In this document: positions 2,036 through 64,000 of the stretch, piece by piece | How the letters are laid out: each line of letters opens with the position of its first letter | How positions within the stretch are numbered: position 1 is the first letter of the stretch | Assembly (NCBI GenBank): GCA_000091205.1 | Contig: AP006500.2 | DNA: 64,000 bases | Reading direction: 5' to 3' (one strand) | DNA from: Cyanidioschyzon merolae | Lineage: Eukaryota | The notes under the pieces: generated by a model | Database searches by the model: none | Told to the model about the DNA's origin: nothing | What the model saw: the letters and a program-made list of their open reading frames with translations, nothing else | Program-made: the position numbers and the translations under genes

Positions 2036-3175
2036 TAACCACCACCATCATCATCATCATGATCATAATTGCTCTGGGATGACGTCGTTTTCATGATGAC
2101 CAGTTCACAACCCTTGCCCGAATCCCTTCTCCTGCTCGCAGCGGCTACCAGGGCATACCCCCAGCGGCATCCACACAGCCGCTGCAGCAGGCGCTCCAGC
2201 TGATCCGCGCGACCCGCGTACGGAGGGCGCCAAGCGCGCGTGCATGACGACCGTTCCGCGGGCCACGCTGACGGGCGCGATCGATGCGCCGCGGCGATCG
2301 GACGCGAACGCTATAGGCGAGTGGAATATTCATCCATAATTGTTCTATAATGTTCTAGTTTCTTGATTGGCGAATCACGCCCTGGAGCGCGGACGCTGCA
2401 CTGCGGATGATGCCGCTTGCCGCACCAGCGTGCGCTGCAGGCTCCTATCCGAGGTGTGCGTGCGTGCGTGCGTGCGTGCCTATATACAGGGACACGTGTC
2501 CCGTAGAGGCATACGTGTCCGAATGGCGATTCTTCGAAGCGTCACGCATGCGGCAATAGCGGGTGCGTTTCGCCTCTGAGAACGTTCCGCTACGTCTCCC
2601 AGCGTACTTGTCAGTGCAGCGTATACCTCGTGCGTCTTCGATATTCAGAACTGCACGCATACGCATGCGTCGTCGTGCGCACAGAACCTGCACGTCGACG
2701 GAAACAAAATGCATAGGATGGAATGCCCTGCTCACGGTCGCTTTGATGGGCTGTCTTCGGGCCACCAGGCGTCATCAGCAGCAGAGCGATCTCATGGTCA
2801 TCGGGCGGGTGCTGTAGGCATGCACTCGAGCAACCAGTACTGACCTGGTACCCGCGATTGCCAGTCTCCCGAGCATCTGCAAGCGCATTATACTACACGT
2901 GTCCTGGTCTGCGATCTGCGCAGGTCGGGCCCCGGGTCCCAGAGCACGAGGTCGTGAGATCAATGCACTCGCTCACGGAAGCTTCAGAAAATGATGGATA
3001 GCGGCTTGAACATGTTTGGGGAAACCGCGCGAAACAGCAAGAGATGCCCGGCGAGCACATATACGCAGAACTGGACGAGAGCATTCCTGATTCGCAAGGG
3101 CATCCCTAGGGGTGCGCGCACACCGTCCCGTACCACGCGCTGGGGCTTGCCGGTCTCGAGGACGCATCCTGCCCG

Positions 3176-7599: not shown

Positions 7600-8290
7600 A
7601 AGAGGCCACAAACGCTGGTGCGCATAAGAATAGGACGAAACGAAAACCTCGGTGCGTACGTCTTTATCAGTGGATCTGTTCTATCTGGTACTGGCGTGAA
7701 CAGTGAAACAGAAAATGGTTCACAACCATGGACGGTAGATATATCCACTCACCCGCTGACGTCTCCCGGCCTTTTTGACCGACCCTCTGCTATCTGCTCC
7801 AGCTTTTCCTTCTACTCTTCGAGCCTGAGAGGCTGCCCCACAAACTTGTATCTCGTCAGCCCCGGGGGTCTCGTCTTCAGCACCACAAATCTCCTGGTAT
7901 TGATGACAGCGCTGAGGTCCTGGTACACGAATCCGATGCGTTTGCTGCCGCTGATAGAACTCATCAGTGCAAGAATTCCTCGAACTCGCGCACTCTGTTC
8001 CACTATAGTCTCATTGTCGTCCAGCCCAACAAACACCTTTTCCCGCCTATTTCCCTACTTATTCTTTTTCGTCCTCATTTGCCCCGTTTCGCTGGATGAT
8101 TGACGAGGAGCGGATCTTATTCGTTGTTTTCCAGCAGCCAGCGACACAGTGCATCCACGATCCCCGATTTAGGCATCAATACCTATCCCCTTGACTTTTT
8201 ATTTCTTCAACTGAACACACTGGGAACGCGTCTTCTATAACCCGAGAAAAGTCATTTTTAATGAAACGCATCTGGTAACGGAACACTATT
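7600..8290 (-). repeat. Truncated, diverged copy of the Fanzor/TnpB-like element 3' region (copy B)
   Basis: The ORF at 7812-8036 (-) reads 'RIGFVYQDLSAVINTRRFVVLKTRPPG', homologous to the '[27 protein letters not shown]' segment of copy A. Its downstream part (7600-7810) aligns by eye to the post-stop blocks of copies A, C and D ('gacgtctcccggcctttttgaccg'; 'ccatggttgtgaaccattttctgtttcactgt'). Upstream, 8040-8290 aligns to copies C and D. Confidence 0.7.
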
Positions 8291-20168: not shown

Positions 20169-20942
20169 TGTCGCTTAGTCGCGAGGGCTGGTCAGTGGAA
20201 CCATACAGGTATCTAGATCAAACCACCGACAAATCCCTCGAGTCTTCTCACGTAGCCTCTGTACCTCGCACAGCGCTTTCGATAGCAGCACAGCGGGGCA
20301 TGCTTGCTTCCCCACGGTCCAGATTCGGGAGTGGGTACACGCCCTCGGCTGGCGTGCGCGTGCCGTGCATCCCCATGCGGCGACCGATACCCTGCTGTCC
20401 TTCTTGTACTAAAGTGTATCGTTTAATACAGATCCGATGAGCTGCATTTCCCTGGCGATGCAGCAGCGGGCGCTCGCGGAGACGCGGGAACCCTGCGACA
20501 CTGGGCGACGAGGGCGCTGCTTGGAATGACGGAAGCGAGCTCAGCTTCCTTATAGATCACTTTGGGTTCGACCAGCTCGGAAAAGGCTTGTTATCAGAGG
20601 GATCGAAACTTGATGAATCCAAAGAGCTCCTGAGTGCTGACCCCGTTCGCGCCAGCGGACGTGCATGCGTGTCAGCATGCATTGGAATCGGTCGACGTAC
20701 CTCACACGGACGTACACGCTACGGTTTGCGTCTCTTTCCGTTGTCTGTAACACGAGAGTCTCTGGGATATTTTTGTGACTCCTTTATTTGCCTATCTTAT
20801 TGTCGACTTTCAATGTGAAGATCTCTTCTTTCCCTGAAGCTCCGTTGTCCATCGGCGAATGATATTGATAGCAGTGTTCAAGTTGCGACTTGCTGCGTTC
20901 TGCAGTTGGCGACGCATTAGCTGCACAGACCAAAGATGCGAT

Positions 20943-21553
20943 CTAGGCTTCGCTTGCCATGTTCACCTTCGTGGTATACAGGCTCGGTGCGCACCCTTCG
21001 CACCGGTGACTCATGACTGTGATCAGATGGTCTCGGACGACCACAAAAACTCGTGACGCTCCAGAGGCTGTAGGGCGGCGTGAGAACGCGTGCTTCATCG
21101 CTCGGTCCGTGCCCTTGACGGTTGAAGAAGGCTCCACGCGATAGTGTCCTCCTCTTCTGCGCACACTACCGCACTCTGTGATCAGGGGTTTCTTCTGAGA
21201 GATCCCTCTGGCGAGTACGCTGTCGCTGCATGCGCAAGCGCGTGCAGTTTTCCGAACAAAACAGCACGGATGGGACGCGATGTTGTCGGTGATGATGCGC
21301 ATTCGGGAAGGGAAATCCAGGTTGGAGATGATATCGAGATATTTCGAAACGTTTACGCCCTGTTCGTGCAACGCGATGACGCAGGTCCGGACCCGGGATC
21401 CACTCTCATGGGAACAGGCAAGATGAGTGCATCAGGGAGCACGGATCCTCTGACTGGTATCATGCTACCATGGAAATCCGTTTTGTCGATGGCCTTGCAG
21501 AGAGGCGGATATGCCCTCCGAATGGCGCGACTCAATTGACGAGAGACGTTCAA
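20943..21553 (-). pseudogene. Possible decayed DDE transposase (pogo/Tc1-like) relic
   Basis: The minus-strand ORF contains 'RIITDNIASHP', resembling the DDE_1 'LLLDNASSHP' motif. An adjacent frame gives 'ALQPLE' (compare 'LQPLDQGII'). Frames are broken and the spacing is atypical. The relic lies in a gene-poor, AT-richer interval of ~3 kb. Confidence 0.25.
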
Positions 21554-23083: not shown

Positions 23084-25045
23084 TTACAGTGCGCTTGTGT
23101 TCAGCGAGGAAATATAATCCTTCAAGCCGACTAGACCACTAGTATGACGCAGTTTTCGAAACGCAGCATTCTCTATCGCTCTAACCTCTTCACGCGGTAA
23201 ACGCACCAGCGCACCTACTTCATCAATTGTCTTGGCAATGCCCGAGTCCAGACCGTATCGCAAACGCACAACCCTCATTTCCACATGATTCAGCAACTGG
23301 AGGGAACGCTCGAGATCTTCACGAAGCATGCTCAGCTCAATTTGCTCCTCAGGCGAAGCGCTTTCATGCACGATCGAATCCGCAAGGGTTGTGCGGTCTC
23401 GTTCCGAGCCAGACTGGTTGTTCCCAAACCGAACCGAGGATTCCAGCGAGATGGTCTGCACTGCAAGCGAACGCAATTCACGCAAGCGCTTCCGGGATAT
23501 TCCCAACCGTTCACAGATATCCGCTTCGGTTGGTTCGCAGCCCCGTTCGATGCTCAGGTCGCGCGCGGCTTTGCGAACGGCGAGTATGCGATCATGCATA
23601 TGAACAGGAAGCCGAACGATACGACCTTGGTCCGCAAGCGCGCGCATGACGCTCTGTTTCACCCACCAGGTCGCGTAGGTGCTGAAACGACATCCGCGTC
23701 GGTCGTCGAACTTTTCTGCCGCCCGAATGAGGCCGAGCGAGCCCTCCTGGATGAGATCCTCCAGGGGCAGACCTTTGCGCATGTATCGCTTGGCAATGGA
23801 CACCACGAGTCGGAGGTTCGCTGCTACCATACGGTCCTTCGCTCGCCGTGCTTCGGCAAGGTTCCTGCGAAAGCGCTCTGGGTCGACACCGAGATGCTCT
23901 GCGAGTTCATCATCCGTTGGTGCTCGATCCAGTGCCCCGTGGAGCTCGATTCGCTTGCGCTCCCAATGCAAAAGCCGTGAAATCTGACGTGAAAGCGATA
24001 CTTCCTCCTCAGGGGTGAGCATATCCACACGTCCGATCATGCGCAAGTACCAGCGCAGGGTACTGCTCTCGCTGGAACGCGCACGAGGGGTTTCGGGATA
24101 TGTCTCCCACGCCAGCGGCTCATTGTCGGAAGGATCATCTTCACTGTAGTCGAGTTCCCGAATGCTCGGTCCGTCATCATCCGCTGCACGTTCGCTGTCC
24201 TGGATGCGTTCCCACCGGGCATTCACTACGGCGGATGGATTCGTAGAGAGGGATCGACGTGATCCTTGTGGCAACTTGTGAACTGCATCATTCAGAGATG
24301 TTGGGCTGAGTCGTTGGTCGGCATTGGACAACTGACGTTGCCGAGCTGGCCGGACACTCTTACTTGAACGTGTTTTCGCGCTCGGAGAGGTAGTTTCACG
24401 CATATGAGCTTGCCCAGGCCCGCCAGGGTGCTTCGCCTCCCAGTTTGGTACCGGCAGGCGATTATCCACGGAAACGAAAGTTTCCTCCAAAGGGGTTTGG
24501 AGCGGCGAATCAGGTACTGCCGACGTAGACTGGCCAACACGAAGCGTTGCAGCTCTCGCCTGACGACGACGCGAGCTGCCGGTTCGCTCGGGCGTACGCT
24601 GCGCACCGGAACTCGCATCCGGAGTCGTACCGCTGTCCACTGACTTGGGCACATGTTCACGCTGCTCGTCGCGTGCCACGGGACCTAGCGGTGCTGGGGC
24701 ACAAACACTGTTCGCCTCCGGCTCAAGTTTTCTAGCTCCATCAACAAAACCATGCTTTTCGAGAGCGTACTCAGCGCCTAGGTCTCGTGATCTGTTCGTG
24801 TTCGCGCAGCAGCGACAGCTGCGCAAGAGGCGCGGCTCGGCCACAACTAGCCTCACACCGCGACCAGGGCAAGTCTTGCCGTGCTGCAACCGCTGCCCGG
24901 CACGCGGCAGATCCAGTTGCTTTAGCGGGCGCACCCTCCATAGACCGAGCGTCGCCGTGACGAAACCTACACCGTCGCTGCTTAGCCTGCAGCAGCGCGC
25001 CTCAGCGCTCGCGGTACGTCCCTGCGTGAACATTGCCCAAGCCAC
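23084..25045 (-). CDS. RNA polymerase sigma-70 family factor (nuclear-encoded plastid sigma factor)
   Basis: The C-terminal half carries canonical regions 2-4: 'RNLAEARRAKDRMVAANLRLVVSIAKRYMRKGLPLEDLIQEGSLGLIRAAEKFDDRRGCRFSTYATWWVKQSVMRAL' (regions 2.1-2.4), 'TIDEVGALVRLPREEVRAIENAAFRKLR' (region 4.2) and others. A long low-complexity N-terminal extension is consistent with an organelle-targeted eukaryotic sigma factor. Confidence 0.85.
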   Translation of the reverse strand: MAWAMFTQGRTASAEARCCRLSSDGVGFVTATLGLWRVRPLKQLDLPRAGQRLQHGKTCPGRGVRLVVAEPRLLRSCRCCANTNRSRDLGAEYALEKHGFVDGARKLEPEANSVCAPAPLGPVARDEQREHVPKSVDSGTTPDASSGAQRTPERTGSSRRRQARAATLRVGQSTSAVPDSPLQTPLEETFVSVDNRLPVPNWEAKHPGGPGQAHMRETTSPSAKTRSSKSVRPARQRQLSNADQRLSPTSLNDAVHKLPQGSRRSLSTNPSAVVNARWERIQDSERAADDDGPSIRELDYSEDDPSDNEPLAWETYPETPRARSSESSTLRWYLRMIGRVDMLTPEEEVSLSRQISRLLHWERKRIELHGALDRAPTDDELAEHLGVDPERFRRNLAEARRAKDRMVAANLRLVVSIAKRYMRKGLPLEDLIQEGSLGLIRAAEKFDDRRGCRFSTYATWWVKQSVMRALADQGRIVRLPVHMHDRILAVRKAARDLSIERGCEPTEADICERLGISRKRLRELRSLAVQTISLESSVRFGNNQSGSERDRTTLADSIVHESASPEEQIELSMLREDLERSLQLLNHVEMRVVRLRYGLDSGIAKTIDEVGALVRLPREEVRAIENAAFRKLRHTSGLVGLKDYISSLNTSAL

Positions 25046-25359
25046 GTCTGTCTCGATGCCCTCCCAAATTCAAGAAATAGGAGTCCAGCTCGAAGAACCA
25101 AGCTTCACCAAGTAGCCTTTTTGAGCAGAGCACGTCCCTGGTTCGACAAATGGGAGTACCACGAACGACAACCGCCTTTCAAAAGAAAAACGCTGTCACT
25201 GGCCGTATACAGTCGTGGCGGCGAATGCGCGTAGACAAAACGCCTCCAACTGACGCGCAGACGCTTCCGAGGCTTTCTCGACCGGCCACCCACGACTGCT
25301 TCCAATTGTTTCTAATATAGTTCCACTTTGGGATGTTGTCCAACAATGTTTTCTCATGT

Positions 25360-25884
25360 CTACGCTGGAGGTCTCTTCTCCAGCACCGCACATCTCCGGA
25401 TATTGATTGCGGCGTTAAAGTCTCGGTTCACAAACTCCATCCGTTTCTTGCCATCGTTGGTTGTACTTACGAATGCGAGTAGCCCTCGAACTTTCGCCCT
25501 CCTTTCCATTTGCTCCTCCGTCAGCGGTCCGAACTTTTTTATATCCTCAGGGCTCCGCTGGCACTTTTCCATATCGACCCGCTGGAGTGTACACCTCAGC
25601 CCGTGGTGTGTATACGATGTTCGGAACTCATCTACAGGTATCGTAACGAAACGCCTTGCGCACTGCTTGTACGTTCTTGTCGTTGGAGCTGGCGTACACC
25701 CTTTTCGGGTCTTCCAGCGCCCTGCTCCGCGTGCTACTACGAGCCTCTGACTTTTATCCTCTTTGAAGGCGCTCATTGGAAAAATTCGCAGATGCACGCT
25801 GCCTCCCACCGTATAGATGAATACGTAGACGAGCCCAAAAGGGCTTTGTGTACTCTTTCCACAGCGCCTCACAATGAGCAACAC
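25360..25884 (-). CDS. TnpB/Fanzor-like nuclease, C-terminal segment (OrfB Zn-ribbon region + RuvC-III)
   Basis: '...[30 protein letters not shown]...[28 protein letters not shown]'. The Zn finger appears degenerate (HH...C...C instead of CxxC...CxxC). Confidence 0.7.
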
Positions 25885-25975
25885 GAATTTCCATGAATTT
25901 CAGAAACGCTTTAAAGTCCGCTCCGCGGCAAGTCACCTCGCTCAAAGCTTCCCGGTGATCCTTCATTCCATCGTT

Positions 25976-26578
25976 CTACGTCTCAATTTTCTTCCTTGCA
26001 TTCATGATTCCCGATTCTCGATAGTATCTCGCTCTCGAGAACCTCAACAGACGCACGTCTTTCTGACGCAAGTTGCCGTCGGTATCATCTCCCCCACGCT
26101 TGGGTACAGCGACGGTTATAATATTCGTGTTCCCGGGGTCCGCGCCACCGACAAAGCAATTCTCATGCACTTTCCGCGTCGCAGGACCCGCCTCCTTCTT
26201 TTTTTCATGCTTCGTCGCGCCAACCGTAAAGTCGTTAGCTTGCACTTTCTGTGTCGCAGGATCCTTCTCCTTCTCATCTTCATGCTTCGTCAGCGGCGGA
26301 ACTGGACGATCCACCTTCAACCGCCGATAGTGTACACACAGGGCTACTCCATCGGTTTCGATCAACCCAGTGAACAACTTTTGCTTGCTTATTTTGAGAC
26401 GTTTGAAAACGAAGATATTCTTCCAGTGCATCTCCCTGTTCTCACCTGTGAACTCTGCCCTCCTTACATCGAACTCGGGACTGATCTCCTTCATGATGCC
26501 ATGAAGGACTCTGGAGCCGGTAGTAACAAAATGTGACTTGATGGTGCACATTGGAACGACGTTGGAGCGCTTCCCCAT
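25976..26578 (-). CDS. TnpB/Fanzor-like nuclease, central segment with the RuvC-I motif
   Basis: '...[51 protein letters not shown]'. It contains an internal tandem duplication of ~66 bp (26160-26290; '[16 protein letters not shown]' / '[16 protein letters not shown]'). It is out of frame with the downstream segment, indicating a frameshift or a small intron. Confidence 0.65.
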
Positions 26579-29500
26579 TAGGGCCGCCTTCCGTCTCTCC
26601 CACTCTTCATTTTTTCGTCACTCAGCTTTATTTCCGCCTTGCGTTCTGGCGCTCGGTCCAGAAACGCGAAATAGCACAGAATGAGGCGATAGTATCTTTC
26701 ATTATCTTTTTTCAGCTCTGATATCTTTTCTCTTGAATTCGCCAGCCCCGAGACTGCACGGTGCTCTTGTATAACAGCACGGATTACAGAAGCTTCATTC
26801 GTGCTCCTGCGTGATTTCTTCTCGTCGACGAATTCGATCTAATCTTCATGCTTGCGATCGTTCGTGATACCGTTGATAATCGCCCATATTCCTTTGCGAG
26901 ACAGGCCCGGGTAAATTGCAAACACGGCGCATATCATAAAACGTTCGAGGTTCATCCTCAAATGCTTCTTCAGGTTCGTGAGGTACTTCATCGCCCCGTA
27001 TGTGTAAGTATCCCGGTCACCCCTGTATCGAGTACCCTCGAAGCGGAATTCCGCGAAGTTTTCGTGGAGGACGTGCACTAGCTCATTTTCCGTCCGCGTT
27101 TCCCCTGTGCCAAGCATCAGGTGACGAATAAAGGTCTTGTCGAAAACTCGTCCGGAATCTCGACTGTTTCCGTATGCGCCACGTCTTCGTACATCTCCCT
27201 CGCCATATGCATGACTCCTAAAGAAGCCTTTATAACACTCATGGGGTACGAATCGACACGGTTCCTGATAGCGTCTCGCAACTTTTCCTTGTAGGGATCC
27301 TTGATATGTTTACGAAGACAGGCGTTTACCACCATCTCGTCGTACTTTCGTCTTTCGTACAGCATGTAAAGTCGGGTCTCCTGCCTTAGCTTCTTCGTCT
27401 TCTCCTGCTCCACTTGGCTCGGCACTCTGTTTCGCTTTCTCTGGCAGCCGGCGAGGTTGTACCACCGGTATCATCCACTTGCTTCTCCATACGTTTCCAT
27501 TTTTGAAAAAGAACGCGCTTTGATCGCTTCTGCTATGTAGCGCGAAAAATCAATCGAATACACCCCCCCTGAGGATTGAAACACAATGGAACTGAGAAGC
27601 TATACTTGCGGCCACTTTCACACAAATACACCCTGTACGATAGAACAACACGCGAAAGATCAGAATCGCGTTTCCCTTCAACGGCGACATGCGCGTCATG
27701 TCTCGTGACTGCCGGATCTCCCGGGTGCGCGTATCGAGCGCACTATGTACCAACAAGAACATAGACTAACGATAAACTACCAACGATACAAAAATTCCTT
27801 TCCCCTCTACGATAAACGTTGAACGTGGGAAACCGCTTCCGTACTGTCGAAAGTTAGCCTTCTTGACGGAAGGTCCCGCGAGCCGGACGAGTCTGTCACG
27901 TTTGTGTTTCATGCTGCACTCAGTGGCAGGTACTTCAGTGGCAGGTACTTCAGTGAAATCTGAGCCACTCGTCCGCAACGCAGTTTCCTCTGAGACTAGG
28001 GGCAGTTAAGCTGTGTCTGGGCGTCGCCCATGTTGCAACTATCTCCGAGCATATCGCTTGGCGCTGCTGCAGGCAGTAGGGCTGTCTGCCCAGTTTTCAG
28101 GCTCCCAGAATGACAATTAGCTCTGATTCCGTGTCAGGTGTAGTATTCGTCGGGCCGACACCATCGGGAGTATGGCAAAGCCGTTCTGGCTACGTGCAGC
28201 ATCTGCTCCAGCGGTGTAGGCGCTGCAGCGGGTGCTCAGCGCAGGCACTCGGCACACGGTAGAACGTTCGAAACGATCAGTATACCCGAGATGAAGAGTA
28301 AGTAATGGAACTTGAAGGTAGGATGCATGATGATGGGCGCTTCCCCGAAAGCCATTATCTATGCCGCAATCTGAGATCCATGGTTCATGTAAACGTTTTG
28401 ATATCGAAAAAAAAATCGCTACCGCCATTGTCATCCCCGCGGATCCATCAACTGGTGATCGCCTCGTCCATGATCTGTTTCATTGCACAGGTCGCTCGAT
28501 GGACAAGCGTTCCTCAACTGCGCGCTTGAGATGAGCGATCGGGAAAGCATCCATCGATCTAGGTCCTGCCTCCAAGTTCCGTGGTGCATACGTCTCCTCC
28601 GAGTGTACTCGTTATCTCTTATGTTCTGTGGTATGCGTCGAGGCTGTTGTGAGCGTTTGCGATAGCGCGTGTAGCGTCGATGCGCACGCAGCCCCGAGGT
28701 CATGTCCACGAAGCGGTTTGTGTGCACGGCCGCCGATGTATTGCTAGTGAAACATGTCGATACAGTGGATCGGGAGTGCTCTGGATGCACTGGTGCTGTC
28801 GGCAGCTGGGGAATGGACACTTGTTTCTTCTCGGATATGGCAGCGTCGTGATGCCTGCAGACCAATTTCCTAGACGAGAATCGGGATTCATAGCATAGAC
28901 GCTTGAACGCTGCGCCCTATCAAACCGCTGGTAGCGGAGCCTGTGGCAGCGCGCAACCCTATACGCCCGCTCGTGCCGCGGAGCATGGCGCAGGCTTCAT
29001 GGTATTCGCGCATGCGTTCAAAAAAGGGTCCCGGAGTGCATCGCTGCCCGTTCCACTGAGGTCGCAGGCTCACCGATACCGCCTCATCGATCCTGGGGCC
29101 GTTCATATCAGTGGATGGAGGTGCTGCGTGATGAAACTACGCAGAGAGGTTTTACCTGGATTCAGACTGCAGCAGGAAGCACGCCTTCGTTCAGTCTCGA
29201 GAGTGCTTGCCTCAGCAGCAGCGCAGTGTCATTTGCCATGAAAACCTACGCAGGTGTCCCAGCGGTCCAGCGTCGCGAGAGGCTACGGATAGCAGCTCCC
29301 CCCGGATCGATGCAGATGCAATTGCGGCTAGGCGAAACCGATATCTGTGCCCGGCACGAATCGTGAATGTGGATACGTATACGGATGCATCCATAAGTGC
29401 GTCCATCGCTCGCCAAGGTCGATGCAGCGTCCGTTATTGCGCAAAAAACGACGATTCCGTGGACCTTCAGCGAAAAGGCGAGCTGCGCTCCACATTCCAT

Positions 29501-42949: not shown

Positions 42950-43650
42950 ACAGCTAGAACATAGTTCCGGAAAAGAATCGAACTGGATGAACAAAGCGAG
43001 TCATCCCCTACTCGATTTTATCGTCAGCGAAATGAGAAATGTTCTACGATAATTGAGGGTGTATGAATACATACATACGCAGACGCCTCCCAGCCTTGTT
43101 TTGACCGGTTCCCCGATACCGGTTTCAGCTTCTCCCTGTATACTTCGATCCTGAGAGGCTGCTGGACAAAAGTTGGACCGGGGCAGCTTCGAGGGTCACG
43201 TCCCCGGTACCAAACTTCTTCTGATATTGATGGCGGCGTTGAAGTCTCGGTTCACGAACTCCATGCGTTTATTGCCGCTGGTGAAGCGTATCATTGCAAA
43301 GATCCCTAGAACTCGTACCCTCTGTCCCAGTACAATCTCGCTATCGTCCCATCGGACAAACAGCTGTTCTCGAGTATATATCCCCTGTTCTTGTTCTTCG
43401 TCACTTGCTTTTCTTCGCTAGATAGTCGACGAGAAGAGGATCTTTTTCGGTTTTTATCCCGGTCGCCAGCGACACCAGCCCTCTAGAATCCCCGACTCCC
43501 ATGTCCATACGGTTCGCTTAGATTTCTTATTTCTTCAAATGAACGCTTTTCGGACGCTTCGATTACAAACCGAGAAAAAGCGTTTGATGCGACGCACCCG
43601 GAGATGGCGCACAATTCAAGAAAGCGTCTACAATCTGACACGAGCCCACC
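42950..43650 (-). repeat. Truncated, diverged copy of the Fanzor/TnpB-like element 3' region (copy C)
   Basis: The reverse complement of 43201-43260 encodes '...[20 protein letters not shown]'. The reported plus-strand ORF 43173-43421 is the antisense frame of this. The flanks align to copy B ('cttcgatcctgagaggctgc', 'gcagacgcctcccagccttgttttgaccgg', 'ttatttcttcaaatgaac...ccgagaaaaagcgtttgatgcgacgcacccgg'). Confidence 0.7.
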
Positions 43651-48160: not shown

Positions 48161-49015
48161 CTCTTTGCAACAAAACAGCGTAGACCGATCGACATTTCTC
48201 GACTTGTTCTTCAACCTGGATTTTCCTTCCGGTACTTTTTTTCATCTCGGATAACATTGCATTCCGCAAATCCTCGATCGAATGCGACGCAGTGCGCTAG
48301 CGTATGCAGCGGACAGTGTACTCGCCCAGGGCATGTATCCGAACTGGCGCGTGTGAACGTCGGGCACGGCACCGGGCGCGGAAACGGTGGCCTGCATCGA
48401 GGCGCGCCTTGTGTTCGCGTCAAGCTCATGTACCGAACGATAAAGCAAGCGCTCACGCTCCACAGAACGGATACCAGAGGCGGAGGAGAACCTGTGATGG
48501 GCGTGCCAGAGAACATCACCCCAGCTCAATATCACCGCCGCAATGGGTGCACCGCGGCTTCATACGAAAGAAGATGAACATGGCAAGCGAGACGTAGATT
48601 GCAAGTTTCGTCGATACATGGAATTCGTCAACAGCAGCCGGAATCAACGACATCGGGACATGAACGCTGCCAGCAACAGCCTTTAAATACTAACAACACG
48701 GTACACGATAGAACCTATGCAGCAACCAGTATATCCCAGAGCACGTATGGAGTTTGGGGCTTGGAAGCAGGGCGCGGAATCATGTATGCTTCACCGCGCG
48801 CTGATATCGAGCGCACTGTCGGGGAACGCTAGCGTGCTTCAACGTTTTTGTCACAGAAACAAGAATGCTGACAACGGGACTGGAGGGAAACGATAGACCG
48901 GCGTATTCAAATCCGGAGAAAACGTGTTGAAAAGGAAGCATTCGCAGAGAACGCCCTCCTAGACGAGAACTGATGACACTGGGAACAGATCCAGACTTTA
49001 GCATGTACGCTTTCG

Positions 49016-62663: not shown

Positions 62664-63300
62664 TCCGTGGCCGGGAGCGTGTCGTCGAATGCTGTTTCGC
62701 GGTTGATGGCAGGGGCGTTGACGTGCGTTCATTTGAATGAACGAAAAAAATCCAAAGGAAATGCATGGAGATAAAGGTCGGGGATTCCAGAGGGCTGGCA
62801 TCTCTGGGTACCGTGAAAGGACTGAAAATTCTCTTCTCGTTGACTATCGGGCGTAGGAGAGCAAGTGACGAAATGGAAGAAGAGAAGATATCATCGAGAC
62901 AAGGCGTTTGTCCTACGGGACGATGACGGGACTATAGTGGGACGGAGGATGCGAGCTCTAGGAATCCTGGCAATCATGCGTTTCACTGGAGGCAATAAAC
63001 GCAAGGAAACCGTGAACCGGGACTTCAACGCCGCCATCAATACCAGATGATGCGCGGCGCTGGAGACGAGACCCGAGGAGCAGAGGCGAGCGAGCTTTGT
63101 GGGGCCCCCTCTGAGGCTCGATGTCTACGTCGAGGAAAGTGATACCGAGCGCAGGCGGTCGGTCAAGAAAGGTTGGGCAGCGTCTGCGCGTGGACACGTA
63201 CGTAGATCTTCCATGGCTGCGAAACGTTTGCGTTTACTGTCATGTTTAGTAGAGTTTTTTGGTTTGACACGTCGTCTACAGCGACGATAGATCCCAGATT
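62650..63300 (+). repeat. Truncated, diverged copy of the Fanzor/TnpB-like element 3' region (copy D, plus orientation)
   Basis: The ORF at 62865-63050 (+) reads '...[33 protein letters not shown]'. Downstream, 'gtcggtcaagaaaggttgggcagcgtctgcgcgtggacacg...ccatggctgcgaaacgtttgcgtttactgtca' matches the post-stop blocks of copies A and B. Upstream, 62690-62865 matches copies B and C. A perfect 15-bp inverted repeat sits at the 5' boundary (62625-62663). Confidence 0.7.
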
Positions 63301-64000
63301 GCGGGATGGAATCTGGTATTCGGGAAAGCATCGAACATGCAGCACCCTACCTTCAAGCTTTGTAACCCCGAATGCTTCTCGTATATATTGGTAGTTTCGT
63401 ACAGTCTATTGCGCATCGAGTGCCTGCCCTGAGCACCCGCTACAGCGCTTATACCGCTGGTGCGCATGCAGCACAGTAACGGAACGCCTTTGCCATACGA
63501 CTTGGGGCGTCGCCTGGAGGCGAACTGCCCCTGAACCAGGCTCCGGTCTTGTCGCCGCTGCGCGACGCTCTGGAGAAACCAGACAGCAGCTAGGATGAAT
63601 CCTGAGCGCCGCCTCTCACGTTCGCGATGTTGTACGCAAAGCGTTGTCGGTTGGCGACGCGGGCTTTTGCTTGGCATTCACCAGTGAGCAGGTGTGCAAG
63701 GCACCGGGCCTTCCGACGAGAAGGTAGAATGTGAGTTTGCTGGCCGCTACTGAGCGTTGGGGCTCGCTCAGTTACGAGACCGACGCCTCAATCGATACGA
63801 GCGCGGATGGATTGGACGGGCGTATGCGGCCTGTGGGGTGGTCTTGTGCCACAGGCGCTTCCGCTGACGGGTACGCGGTGCGCTCGGAGCTCGGGTGCTC
63901 TGCGCGTTTGTTACGGAGTATTGGGGTCAGCGCTGGACACGTTCAGGTACGGAGTAGGAAAATAAGCATGCATAGGATGGGGGTTTGTTGTCTTGTGCGC

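Follow-up and report, generated by a model that had tools for sequence, protein, structure and literature searches.

Described Fanzor1 Elements

The Fanzor1 proteins SpuFz1, PpFz1 and GtFz1 are omega-RNA-guided double-stranded DNA endonucleases. The locus analyzed here lies on the minus strand of a 64,000-nucleotide stretch of Cyanidioschyzon merolae DNA (GenBank assembly GCA_000091205.1, contig AP006500.2; the whole stretch is hereafter the window), in which an earlier annotation made from the sequence alone (the original prediction) had proposed a candidate Fanzor gene at 25046-27425 that would be noteworthy if intact or nearly so. The closest described system is CMe-1A of the same organism, a ~3.2-kb non-autonomous DNA transposon family with a single-exon Fanzor1 gene (CMe-1), which was described in the paper that named and defined the Fanzors (Bao & Jurka, 2013, Mobile DNA 4:12; PMC3627910) and is also present in Repbase. 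According to that paper, CMe-1A has about 150 copies, which share approximately 80% identity with their ~3-kb consensus, lacks terminal inverted repeats (TIRs) and has undetermined target-site duplications (TSDs). Its 5' 635 bp constitute a separate element, TE-N2_CMe, with about 70 copies, while CMe-1 is a one-exon Fanzor1 protein of 734 amino acids that some copies are reported still to encode intact (PMC3627910). The Chlamydomonas elements CRe-1 to CRe-3 resemble CMe-1A in being algal, of high copy number and without TIRs, with TSDs of 0 or undetermined, but they have 5-10 exons, are expressed and lie within recognizable Helitrons, whereas CMe-1A has no assigned transposon class (PMC3627910).

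Identification of the Locus as a Copy of CMe-1A

The published 3,169-bp consensus of CMe-1A, which like the CMe-1 protein comes from the supplement of PMC3627910, aligned end to end with the window, with consensus position 1 at 28406 and position 3169 at 25173, and showed 86.3% identity. Both the 5' start (CGATGACAAAACGTTTAC...) and the 3' end (...TTTTGAAAGGCG) of the consensus were matched by the window copy, which also has in common with CMe-1A the organism, the single-exon open reading frame (ORF) and the TE-N2_CMe-like 5' block. A repeat unit with sharp ends at ~28408 and ~25165 was found independently from the alignment of 82 related loci, and the 3' end of the element is thus placed at 25173 by consensus alignment and at ~25165 by copy alignment. 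Copy coverage falls at ~27750, indicating a separable 5' block of which solo copies occur elsewhere; its boundary in the window (27755) was calculated here from the indels in the consensus alignment. The location of the gene in a eukaryotic transposable element is further shown by this 3.2-kb repeat unit, by 283 related metagenome stretches and by additional relics within the window. The minus-strand interval 28406-25173 is therefore read, with a probability of roughly 0.95, as one old, inactivated copy of CMe-1A (Table 1).

All four minus-strand ORF segments of the original prediction were present, and the three motif stretches that it had quoted were recovered verbatim and in the order claimed (RuvC-I, Zn-ribbon-like block, RuvC-III). 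The predicted interval held these ORF pieces but did not coincide with the element, of which the ORF remnant runs from 27490 to ~25231, and the segment 25046-25172 is host DNA upstream of the adjoining sigma-factor gene. The lower-GC island was also evident, with a GC content of 0.507 over 25173-28406 compared to 0.571 and 0.577 in the flanks. Searches with the joined ORF translation found 49 relatives with identities of 65-79% and a best score of 1047 bits, a resemblance far beyond chance; the top relative, which is clade member P0001, was 65% identical across 96% of the query. When P0001 was aligned to the ORF remnant by tblastn, successive matches fell in frames -3, -2, -1, and -2.

The locus is thus already known as a family, both from the literature and from Repbase, and the window copy is an ordinary member whose 13.7% divergence from the consensus is typical (~20% reported). 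The 2013 publication already covered the family, how many copies it has, its Fanzor1 protein and the lack of TIRs, and the window copy cannot make the protein. The finding therefore matters little as a discovery, and the interest attached to it as an algal Fanzor did not stand.

Table 1. Coordinates of the features of the CMe-1A copy and of related features in the window.
Feature	Position	Strand	Basis or remark
Whole CMe-1A copy carrying Fanzor1	25173..28406	-	Global alignment to 3,169-bp consensus; inter-copy similarity limits over 82 loci
5' block equivalent to TE-N2_CMe (CMe-1A 1-635)	27755..28406	-	Bao & Jurka; copy coverage drop at ~27750
Fanzor1 (CMe-1) ORF remnant, ATG at 27490 kept	25231..27490	-	87.7% nucleotide identity to CMe-1A ORF
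ORF segment	27117..27425	-	Original prediction
ORF segment	26839..27117	-	Original prediction
ORF segment	25976..26578	-	Original prediction
ORF segment	25360..25884	-	Original prediction
RuvC-I stretch, 17 residues	26105..26155	-	Original prediction, verbatim
RuvC-I GADPG, catalytic Asp retained	26132..26146	-	Column invariant in 45 members; aligns to DPGR/DPNK of PpFz, SpuFz
20-residue family-typical stretch between RuvC-I and RuvC-II	25781..25840		
OrfB Zn-ribbon-like stretch, 19 residues	25591..25647	-	Original prediction, verbatim
RuvC-II VDEFRTS, catalytic Glu retained	25615..25635	-	E656 invariant; aligns to PpFz DEFRTS, SpuFz DEYKTS
RuvC-III stretch, 17 residues	25393..25443	-	Original prediction, verbatim
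RuvC-III 10-residue motif, catalytic Asp retained	25399..25428	-	D725 invariant; aligns to NRD of Fanzor1 structures
Imperfect 75-nt tandem repeat, Lys/Glu-rich linker	26141..26291	-	Self-BLAST, 26166-26216 vs 26241-26291 at 84%
3' non-coding tail with near-invariant motif and terminal hairpin	25167..25230	-	Column conservation 0.9-1.0
Frameshifting deletion, 1 nt	~27440		Codon 17
Frameshifting deletion, 1 nt	~27148		Codon 115
Frameshifting deletion, 1 nt	~26615		Codon 293
Frameshifting deletion, 5 nt	~25775 (25775..25776)		Codon 552
Premature stop	26841 (26839..26841)		E218, GAG to TAG
Premature stop	25978		W485 to TAG
Premature stop	25362		L692 to TAG
Premature stop	25356		R694 to TGA
Premature stop	25314		E708 to TAG
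CMe-1-like relic	7747..8002	-	
CMe-1-like relic, internally deleted, 5' piece and 3' end kept	43079..43276, 43444..43587	-	Abuts CMR174C start (43604)
CMe-1-like relic	62991..63112	+	

Inactivation of the Window Copy

Lesions were called against the published consensus and equally against a 58-copy consensus prepared here, each of which is one uninterrupted ORF. Relative to CMe-1A, the frame of the window copy is shifted four times and interrupted by five premature stops, its natural stop codon (~25231) is damaged, its linker has an extra 63-nt repeat, and its codons differ from the consensus by 151 non-synonymous and 79 synonymous changes. No uninterrupted frame from ATG to stop was found in it. 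The window copy is a pseudogene, unable to make a Fanzor1 protein, and the possibility of an intact or near-intact gene is contradicted; of the two explanations first offered for the frame changes, frameshifts in a pseudogene proved correct (deletions of 1 and 5 nt together with the five stops) and introns did not.

The same interval, comprising FolD, the element and the sigma gene, was found in seven independently assembled environmental contigs that are 99.1-99.4% identical to it. One of them (L083) carries the identical lesion set and another (L092) is identical over the part that it covers, which shows that several environmental strains inherited the lesions from a common ancestor and that the dead copy had become fixed. 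All seven (L083-L086, L089, L092, and L093) belong to C. merolae-like metagenome strains with 99.1-99.4% identity to strain 10D over a 4.6-kb interval. L089 differs at two lesions, having no stop at codon 218 and a gain instead of a loss of 1 nt near codon 292. These related strains were also searched for an uninterrupted FolD-sigma interval from which the TSD and the target could be defined, but the insertion is present in all seven contigs.

Decay predominates in the family: approximately 79 of the 82 related copies fetched are broken, and a long open frame was seen in only about three. In the most open copies (L001, L003, and L004), whose protein is P0001, the published ATG is out of frame through a 1-nt change in an A-run. 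This A-run (~27440; CMe-1 codons 17-20) is an indel hotspot just after the ATG, and among the 46 copies that retain the ATG, 25 lose the frame at this run.

Assignment of the Protein to Fanzor1

Single sequences and a narrow family alignment (A1) were nearly blind to the relationship. Searches of Pfam with the single ORF pieces gave only a sub-threshold match to PF07282/Cas12f1-like_TNB (E = 0.014; 16 bits against a cutoff of 26.3), phmmer with a single sequence gave no match in the PDB, and alignment A1 gave only a marginal match there, to the RuvC-I of IscB. A Pfam scan of intact relatives also gave no match, the library scanned not including PF26935. A broad alignment (A2) was therefore needed.

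An exhaustive profile search recovered 2,459 representative clusters at E ≤ 1e-3. When 45 diverse full-length members were aligned, D484, E656, and D725 (P0001 numbering) were among the invariant positions; they are residues of GxDPG, VDEFR, and NRDxNAAxNI, respectively, and make up the catalytic Asp-Glu-Asp triad of the split RuvC domain, which the window copy retains in the order I, II, III. Searched against the whole PDB, the 45-member profile matched Fanzor1 chains only, namely those of Parasitella parasitica (9cf0, E = 1.7e-22), Spizellomyces punctatus (8gkh, E = 2.5e-14) and Guillardia theta (9cer, E = 3.4e-10), and the alignments spanned RuvC-I, RuvC-II, and RuvC-III. The RuvC-I and RuvC-III aspartates are thus alignable with those of the Fanzor1 structures, and the profile search suggested in the original prediction, sub-threshold for PF07282 on the window copy itself, became significant once the family profile was used.

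Structure prediction, also suggested at the outset, was applied to the intact relative P0001 and not to the broken window copy. The AlphaFold2 model (predicted local distance difference test score, pLDDT, 81.8; predicted template modeling score 0.79) had Fanzor1 structures as its top seven Foldseek matches in the PDB (E = 6e-16 to 1.7e-13; target-normalized template modeling score, TM, up to 0.71), while Cas12 and TnpB appeared only at E above 0.01. Based on these profile and Foldseek matches, the protein family is assigned to Fanzor1 by sequence and modeled fold, which upholds and narrows the original call of a TnpB/Fanzor-type RuvC nuclease.

Comparison with the structures of SpuFz1 (8gkh, 9ceu-9cez), PpFz1 (9cf0-9cf3) and GtFz1 (9cer-9cet) indicated a similar predicted overall fold, profile matches through the three RuvC motifs and, in common, a location on eukaryotic transposons. 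However, sequence identity between these proteins and the CMe-1 clade is only 13-15%, the clade lacks their CxxC...CxnC zinc ribbon between RuvC-II and RuvC-III, and CMe-1 has a disordered Lys/Glu-rich tandem-repeat linker before RuvC-I. TnpB (ISDra2, 8h1j), Cas12f and other type V effectors share with CMe-1 a RuvC core in the C-terminal half and an RDxNAAxNI-type RuvC-III; they differ in that their similarity in fold and sequence is marginal (Foldseek E = 0.02), and the CMe-1 protein is about twice their size and has a eukaryotic nuclear location.

The Cys-rich zinc ribbon (TNB/OrfB_Zn_ribbon) expected of a Fanzor1 between RuvC-II and RuvC-III was found neither in the window copy nor in its clade. 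In the segment that connects the RuvC-II Glu to the RuvC-III Asp, two CxnC pairs occur in none of the 45 clade members, of which 42 lack any such pair, while the Pfam model Cas12f1-like_TNB matches nine of the 45 (best E = 3e-5). The degenerate zinc finger noted in the original prediction is real in that no Cys4 is present, but the loss characterizes this Fanzor1 clade as a whole, with the published CMe-1 among its members, and is not decay of the window copy, nor does it remove the clade from Fanzor1 as Bao & Jurka define it. A large Fanzor1 clade without the Cys4 ribbon, comprising the 2,459 representative clusters, is possibly a useful by-product of the analysis.

The only Pfam label on the relatives P0001-P0048 is PF26935 ('DUF8286'), with precomputed matches rated 'weak' for P0001 and P0009. 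This label falls on a Fanzor1 family, which represents an annotation gap, and the DUF could be renamed.

The linker before RuvC-I encodes repeats of KHE(E/D)KKEA.PATQ.VQDND, and unit number varies from one in the published consensus to two in the window copy and more in P0001 and P0013. Relative to the consensus, insertions of 56, 2, and 5 nt give the window copy its in-frame gain of 63 nt. Tandem Repeats Finder did not report the 75-nt repeat, which rests on self-BLAST; in the AlphaFold2 model, the linker (P0001 residues 385-470) is disordered, with pLDDT below 50. Another repeat, a 15-nt unit TCAGTGGCAGGTACT present 2.4 times at 27920-27955 in the TE-N2-like block, accounts for insertions of 12 and 3 nt relative to the consensus.

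Proposed Function and Mode of Movement

By analogy with the characterized Fanzor1 proteins, the ancestral intact CMe-1A element would have expressed a nuclease. This enzyme would have bound an RNA spanning the 3' part of its ORF and the right end of the transposon, and would have cleaved DNA that matched a guide from the adjoining flank. Such RNA-guided cutting probably helped the transposon to persist. The present copy is a relic that could at most serve, with low probability, as an RNA donor in trans, or else belong to the sequence upstream of the sigma-factor gene. Weighing against this account are the transfer of the RNA-guided mechanism from distant relatives (13-15% identity), the absence in the clade of the Cys4 zinc ribbon of the characterized Fanzor1 proteins, the sub-threshold score of the Pfam TnpB-type model on the window copy (E = 0.014) and the modest evidence for a structured omega RNA.

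The alternative that survives best, itself rather doubtful, concerns how the element moves and not the identity of the flagged gene: CMe-1A would be a rolling-circle or single-strand element, Helitron-like or IS200/IS605-like, and its terminal hairpin a DNA signal for an HUH-type transposase. CMe-1A has no TIRs and no determinable TSDs, and in Chlamydomonas, Helitrons carry the Fanzor1 elements CRe-1 to CRe-3 (PMC3627910). Terminal hairpins are typical of HUH transposons, and that of CMe-1A lies ~10 nt from the 3' end with a variable stem sequence; in addition, TE-N2-type 5' blocks stand directly after the 3' ends of other copies. On the other hand, neither the element nor the window showed a Rep/helicase gene, the termini differ from the canonical Helitron TC...CTRR, and a Replitron survey reports no related proteins in red algae. 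In agreement with the published lack of TIRs, comparison of both element ends by eye gave only a weak, unconvincing resemblance centered on AACGTT.

The window copy is preceded by a T-run (28407-28415), and nearly every copy is preceded by 5-9 T outside the published consensus. This run may represent a target-site preference, and hence a candidate target-adjacent motif (TAM), or an unrecognized terminal sequence; its reading as a target or TAM motif is speculation.

Conservation and Folding of the 3' End

Among the non-coding parts of the element, the 3' tail is the most strongly conserved. It contains the near-invariant motif CGCCACTACTGTA, CGCCAC(G/T)ACTGTA, at 25208-25220, and a terminal hairpin at 25167-25197, ~10 nt from the terminus, whose folding z-score is -2.5 in the window copy and, as the median of 34 copies, -2.6; the stem sequence differs by subfamily and the pairing is kept. 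The tail and the final ~200 nt of the ORF make up a candidate scaffold of an omega RNA or a candidate right end of the transposon. Folding better than that of shuffles was obtained for the 3' ~260 nt of the published consensus (z = -2.9) and of an intact copy (z = -2.3), whereas the same region of the window copy did not (z = -1.35). A search of Rfam over the element gave only a chance match to CRISPR-DR9 (E = 0.45). Over 37 copies, RNAalifold detected hardly any common structure (-7.9 kcal/mol; covariation term -0.08), partly because the terminal hairpin pairs in different registers across subfamilies.

For a four-helix structure common to the folds of the 3' ~260 nt, 86% of cells were paired across the 37 copies, compared to 34-58% with a slid partner. 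Seven of its pairs showed double changes, a number reached by four of 500 shuffles, and its covariation score was 0.104 against 0.084 (1 of 500 shuffles). The window copy itself carries a compensatory change from A-U to C-G in the long-range helix (25286-25297 with 25208-25220). Since the structure was taken from one alignment row and the copies are related, this modest covariation is no more than suggestive of a structured omega-RNA scaffold at the 3' end, and the conserved features would fit a DNA signal used in transposition just as well.

These features bear on a second alternative, in which the locus, dead as a protein gene, would still be an RNA gene: an omega RNA from its 3' end would be taken up by Fanzor1 that the few intact CMe-1A copies produce, and the guide would come from the host sequence immediately past 25165, in the region upstream of the sigma-factor gene. 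This is judged unlikely. The conservation of the tail, the hairpin kept with subfamily-specific stems, the compensatory change in the window copy, the pair counts above those of shuffles and slid controls, and the report of some copies with an intact protein (PMC3627910) are in its favor; the near absence of an RNAalifold consensus, the z-score of the window copy, the equal fit of the tail to a DNA transposition signal, and the finding that the otherwise open copies have their ATG out of frame speak against it. Still less credence is given to the extension of this idea to the whole family, by which protein-dead copies would be live guide-RNA genes whose conserved 3' ~180 nt form a scaffold loaded in trans by Fanzor1 from intact copies. 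The parts of such a scaffold may be a CUGGAG hairpin, the long-range helix with CGCCACUACUGUA, a GGCGUCU hairpin and the terminal hairpin. If true, C. merolae would hold about 150 genome-encoded guides, each matching DNA beside a copy; here, the guide would be the upstream region of the plastid sigma-factor gene and the 5' T-run the TAM. The conserved right-end hairpin and the near-invariant 13-nt motif offer a starting point for reconstituting a red-algal Fanzor from the consensus, for which C. merolae provides a genetically tractable and intron-poor host.

With the window copy read as an inactivated CMe-1A element, two further explanations of its interrupted frame are very improbable. An intact gene interrupted by small introns, for which the multi-exon Chlamydomonas Fanzors in the supplement table (PMC3627910) and the retention of all catalytic motifs could be cited, is refuted by the consensus alignment: the published CMe-1 gene has one exon and both consensuses are single ORFs, the frame changes are deletions of 1, 1, 1, and 5 nt rather than inserted sequence, no GT..AG occurs at the junctions, and five in-frame stops fall within well-aligned coding sequence. 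Sequencing or assembly errors in a gene that is really intact, as could be supposed from three of the four frameshifts being single-base deletions, one of them in the A-run hotspot, are rejected because orthologous copies in independent environmental contigs carry the lesions; moreover, five lesions are substitutions creating stops, and the divergence of the copy from the consensus amounts to 13.7% and includes numerous non-synonymous changes.

Neighboring Genes and Other Repeats in the Window

As the original prediction had stated, a sigma-factor gene adjoins the element: the minus-strand ORF 23084-25033 contains Sigma70 regions 1.2, 2, 3, and 4, and the ATG of this sigma-70-type factor (25033) is ~140 bp beyond the end of the element, which lies upstream. 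Four neighboring proteins of the window are exact C. merolae 10D entries, namely a mitochondrial manganese superoxide dismutase (BAM82408), FolD (BAM82414), CYME_CMR174C (BAM82419) and a WNK-like kinase (BAM82428).

Three further CMe-1-like relics are present (Table 1). The loci at 7.9, 43.2, and 63 kb were considered as additional Fanzor-like genes and rejected, since they are short, lack ORFs and match the consensus at ~70% identity. At 63273-63498, a solo TE-N2_CMe-like 5' block directly follows the 3' end of a Fanzor relic. The same order of relic followed by TE-N2_CMe block recurs in the metagenome loci L047, L073/L077, and L054, which suggests either insertion beside existing right ends or tandem or nested copies.

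Lower-GC patches also occur at 21-22, 42-44, and 47-49 kb. Finally, a pair of 69-nt inverted repeats (20902-20970 and 48570-48638), 72% complementary and 27.6 kb apart, is probably another dispersed repeat.

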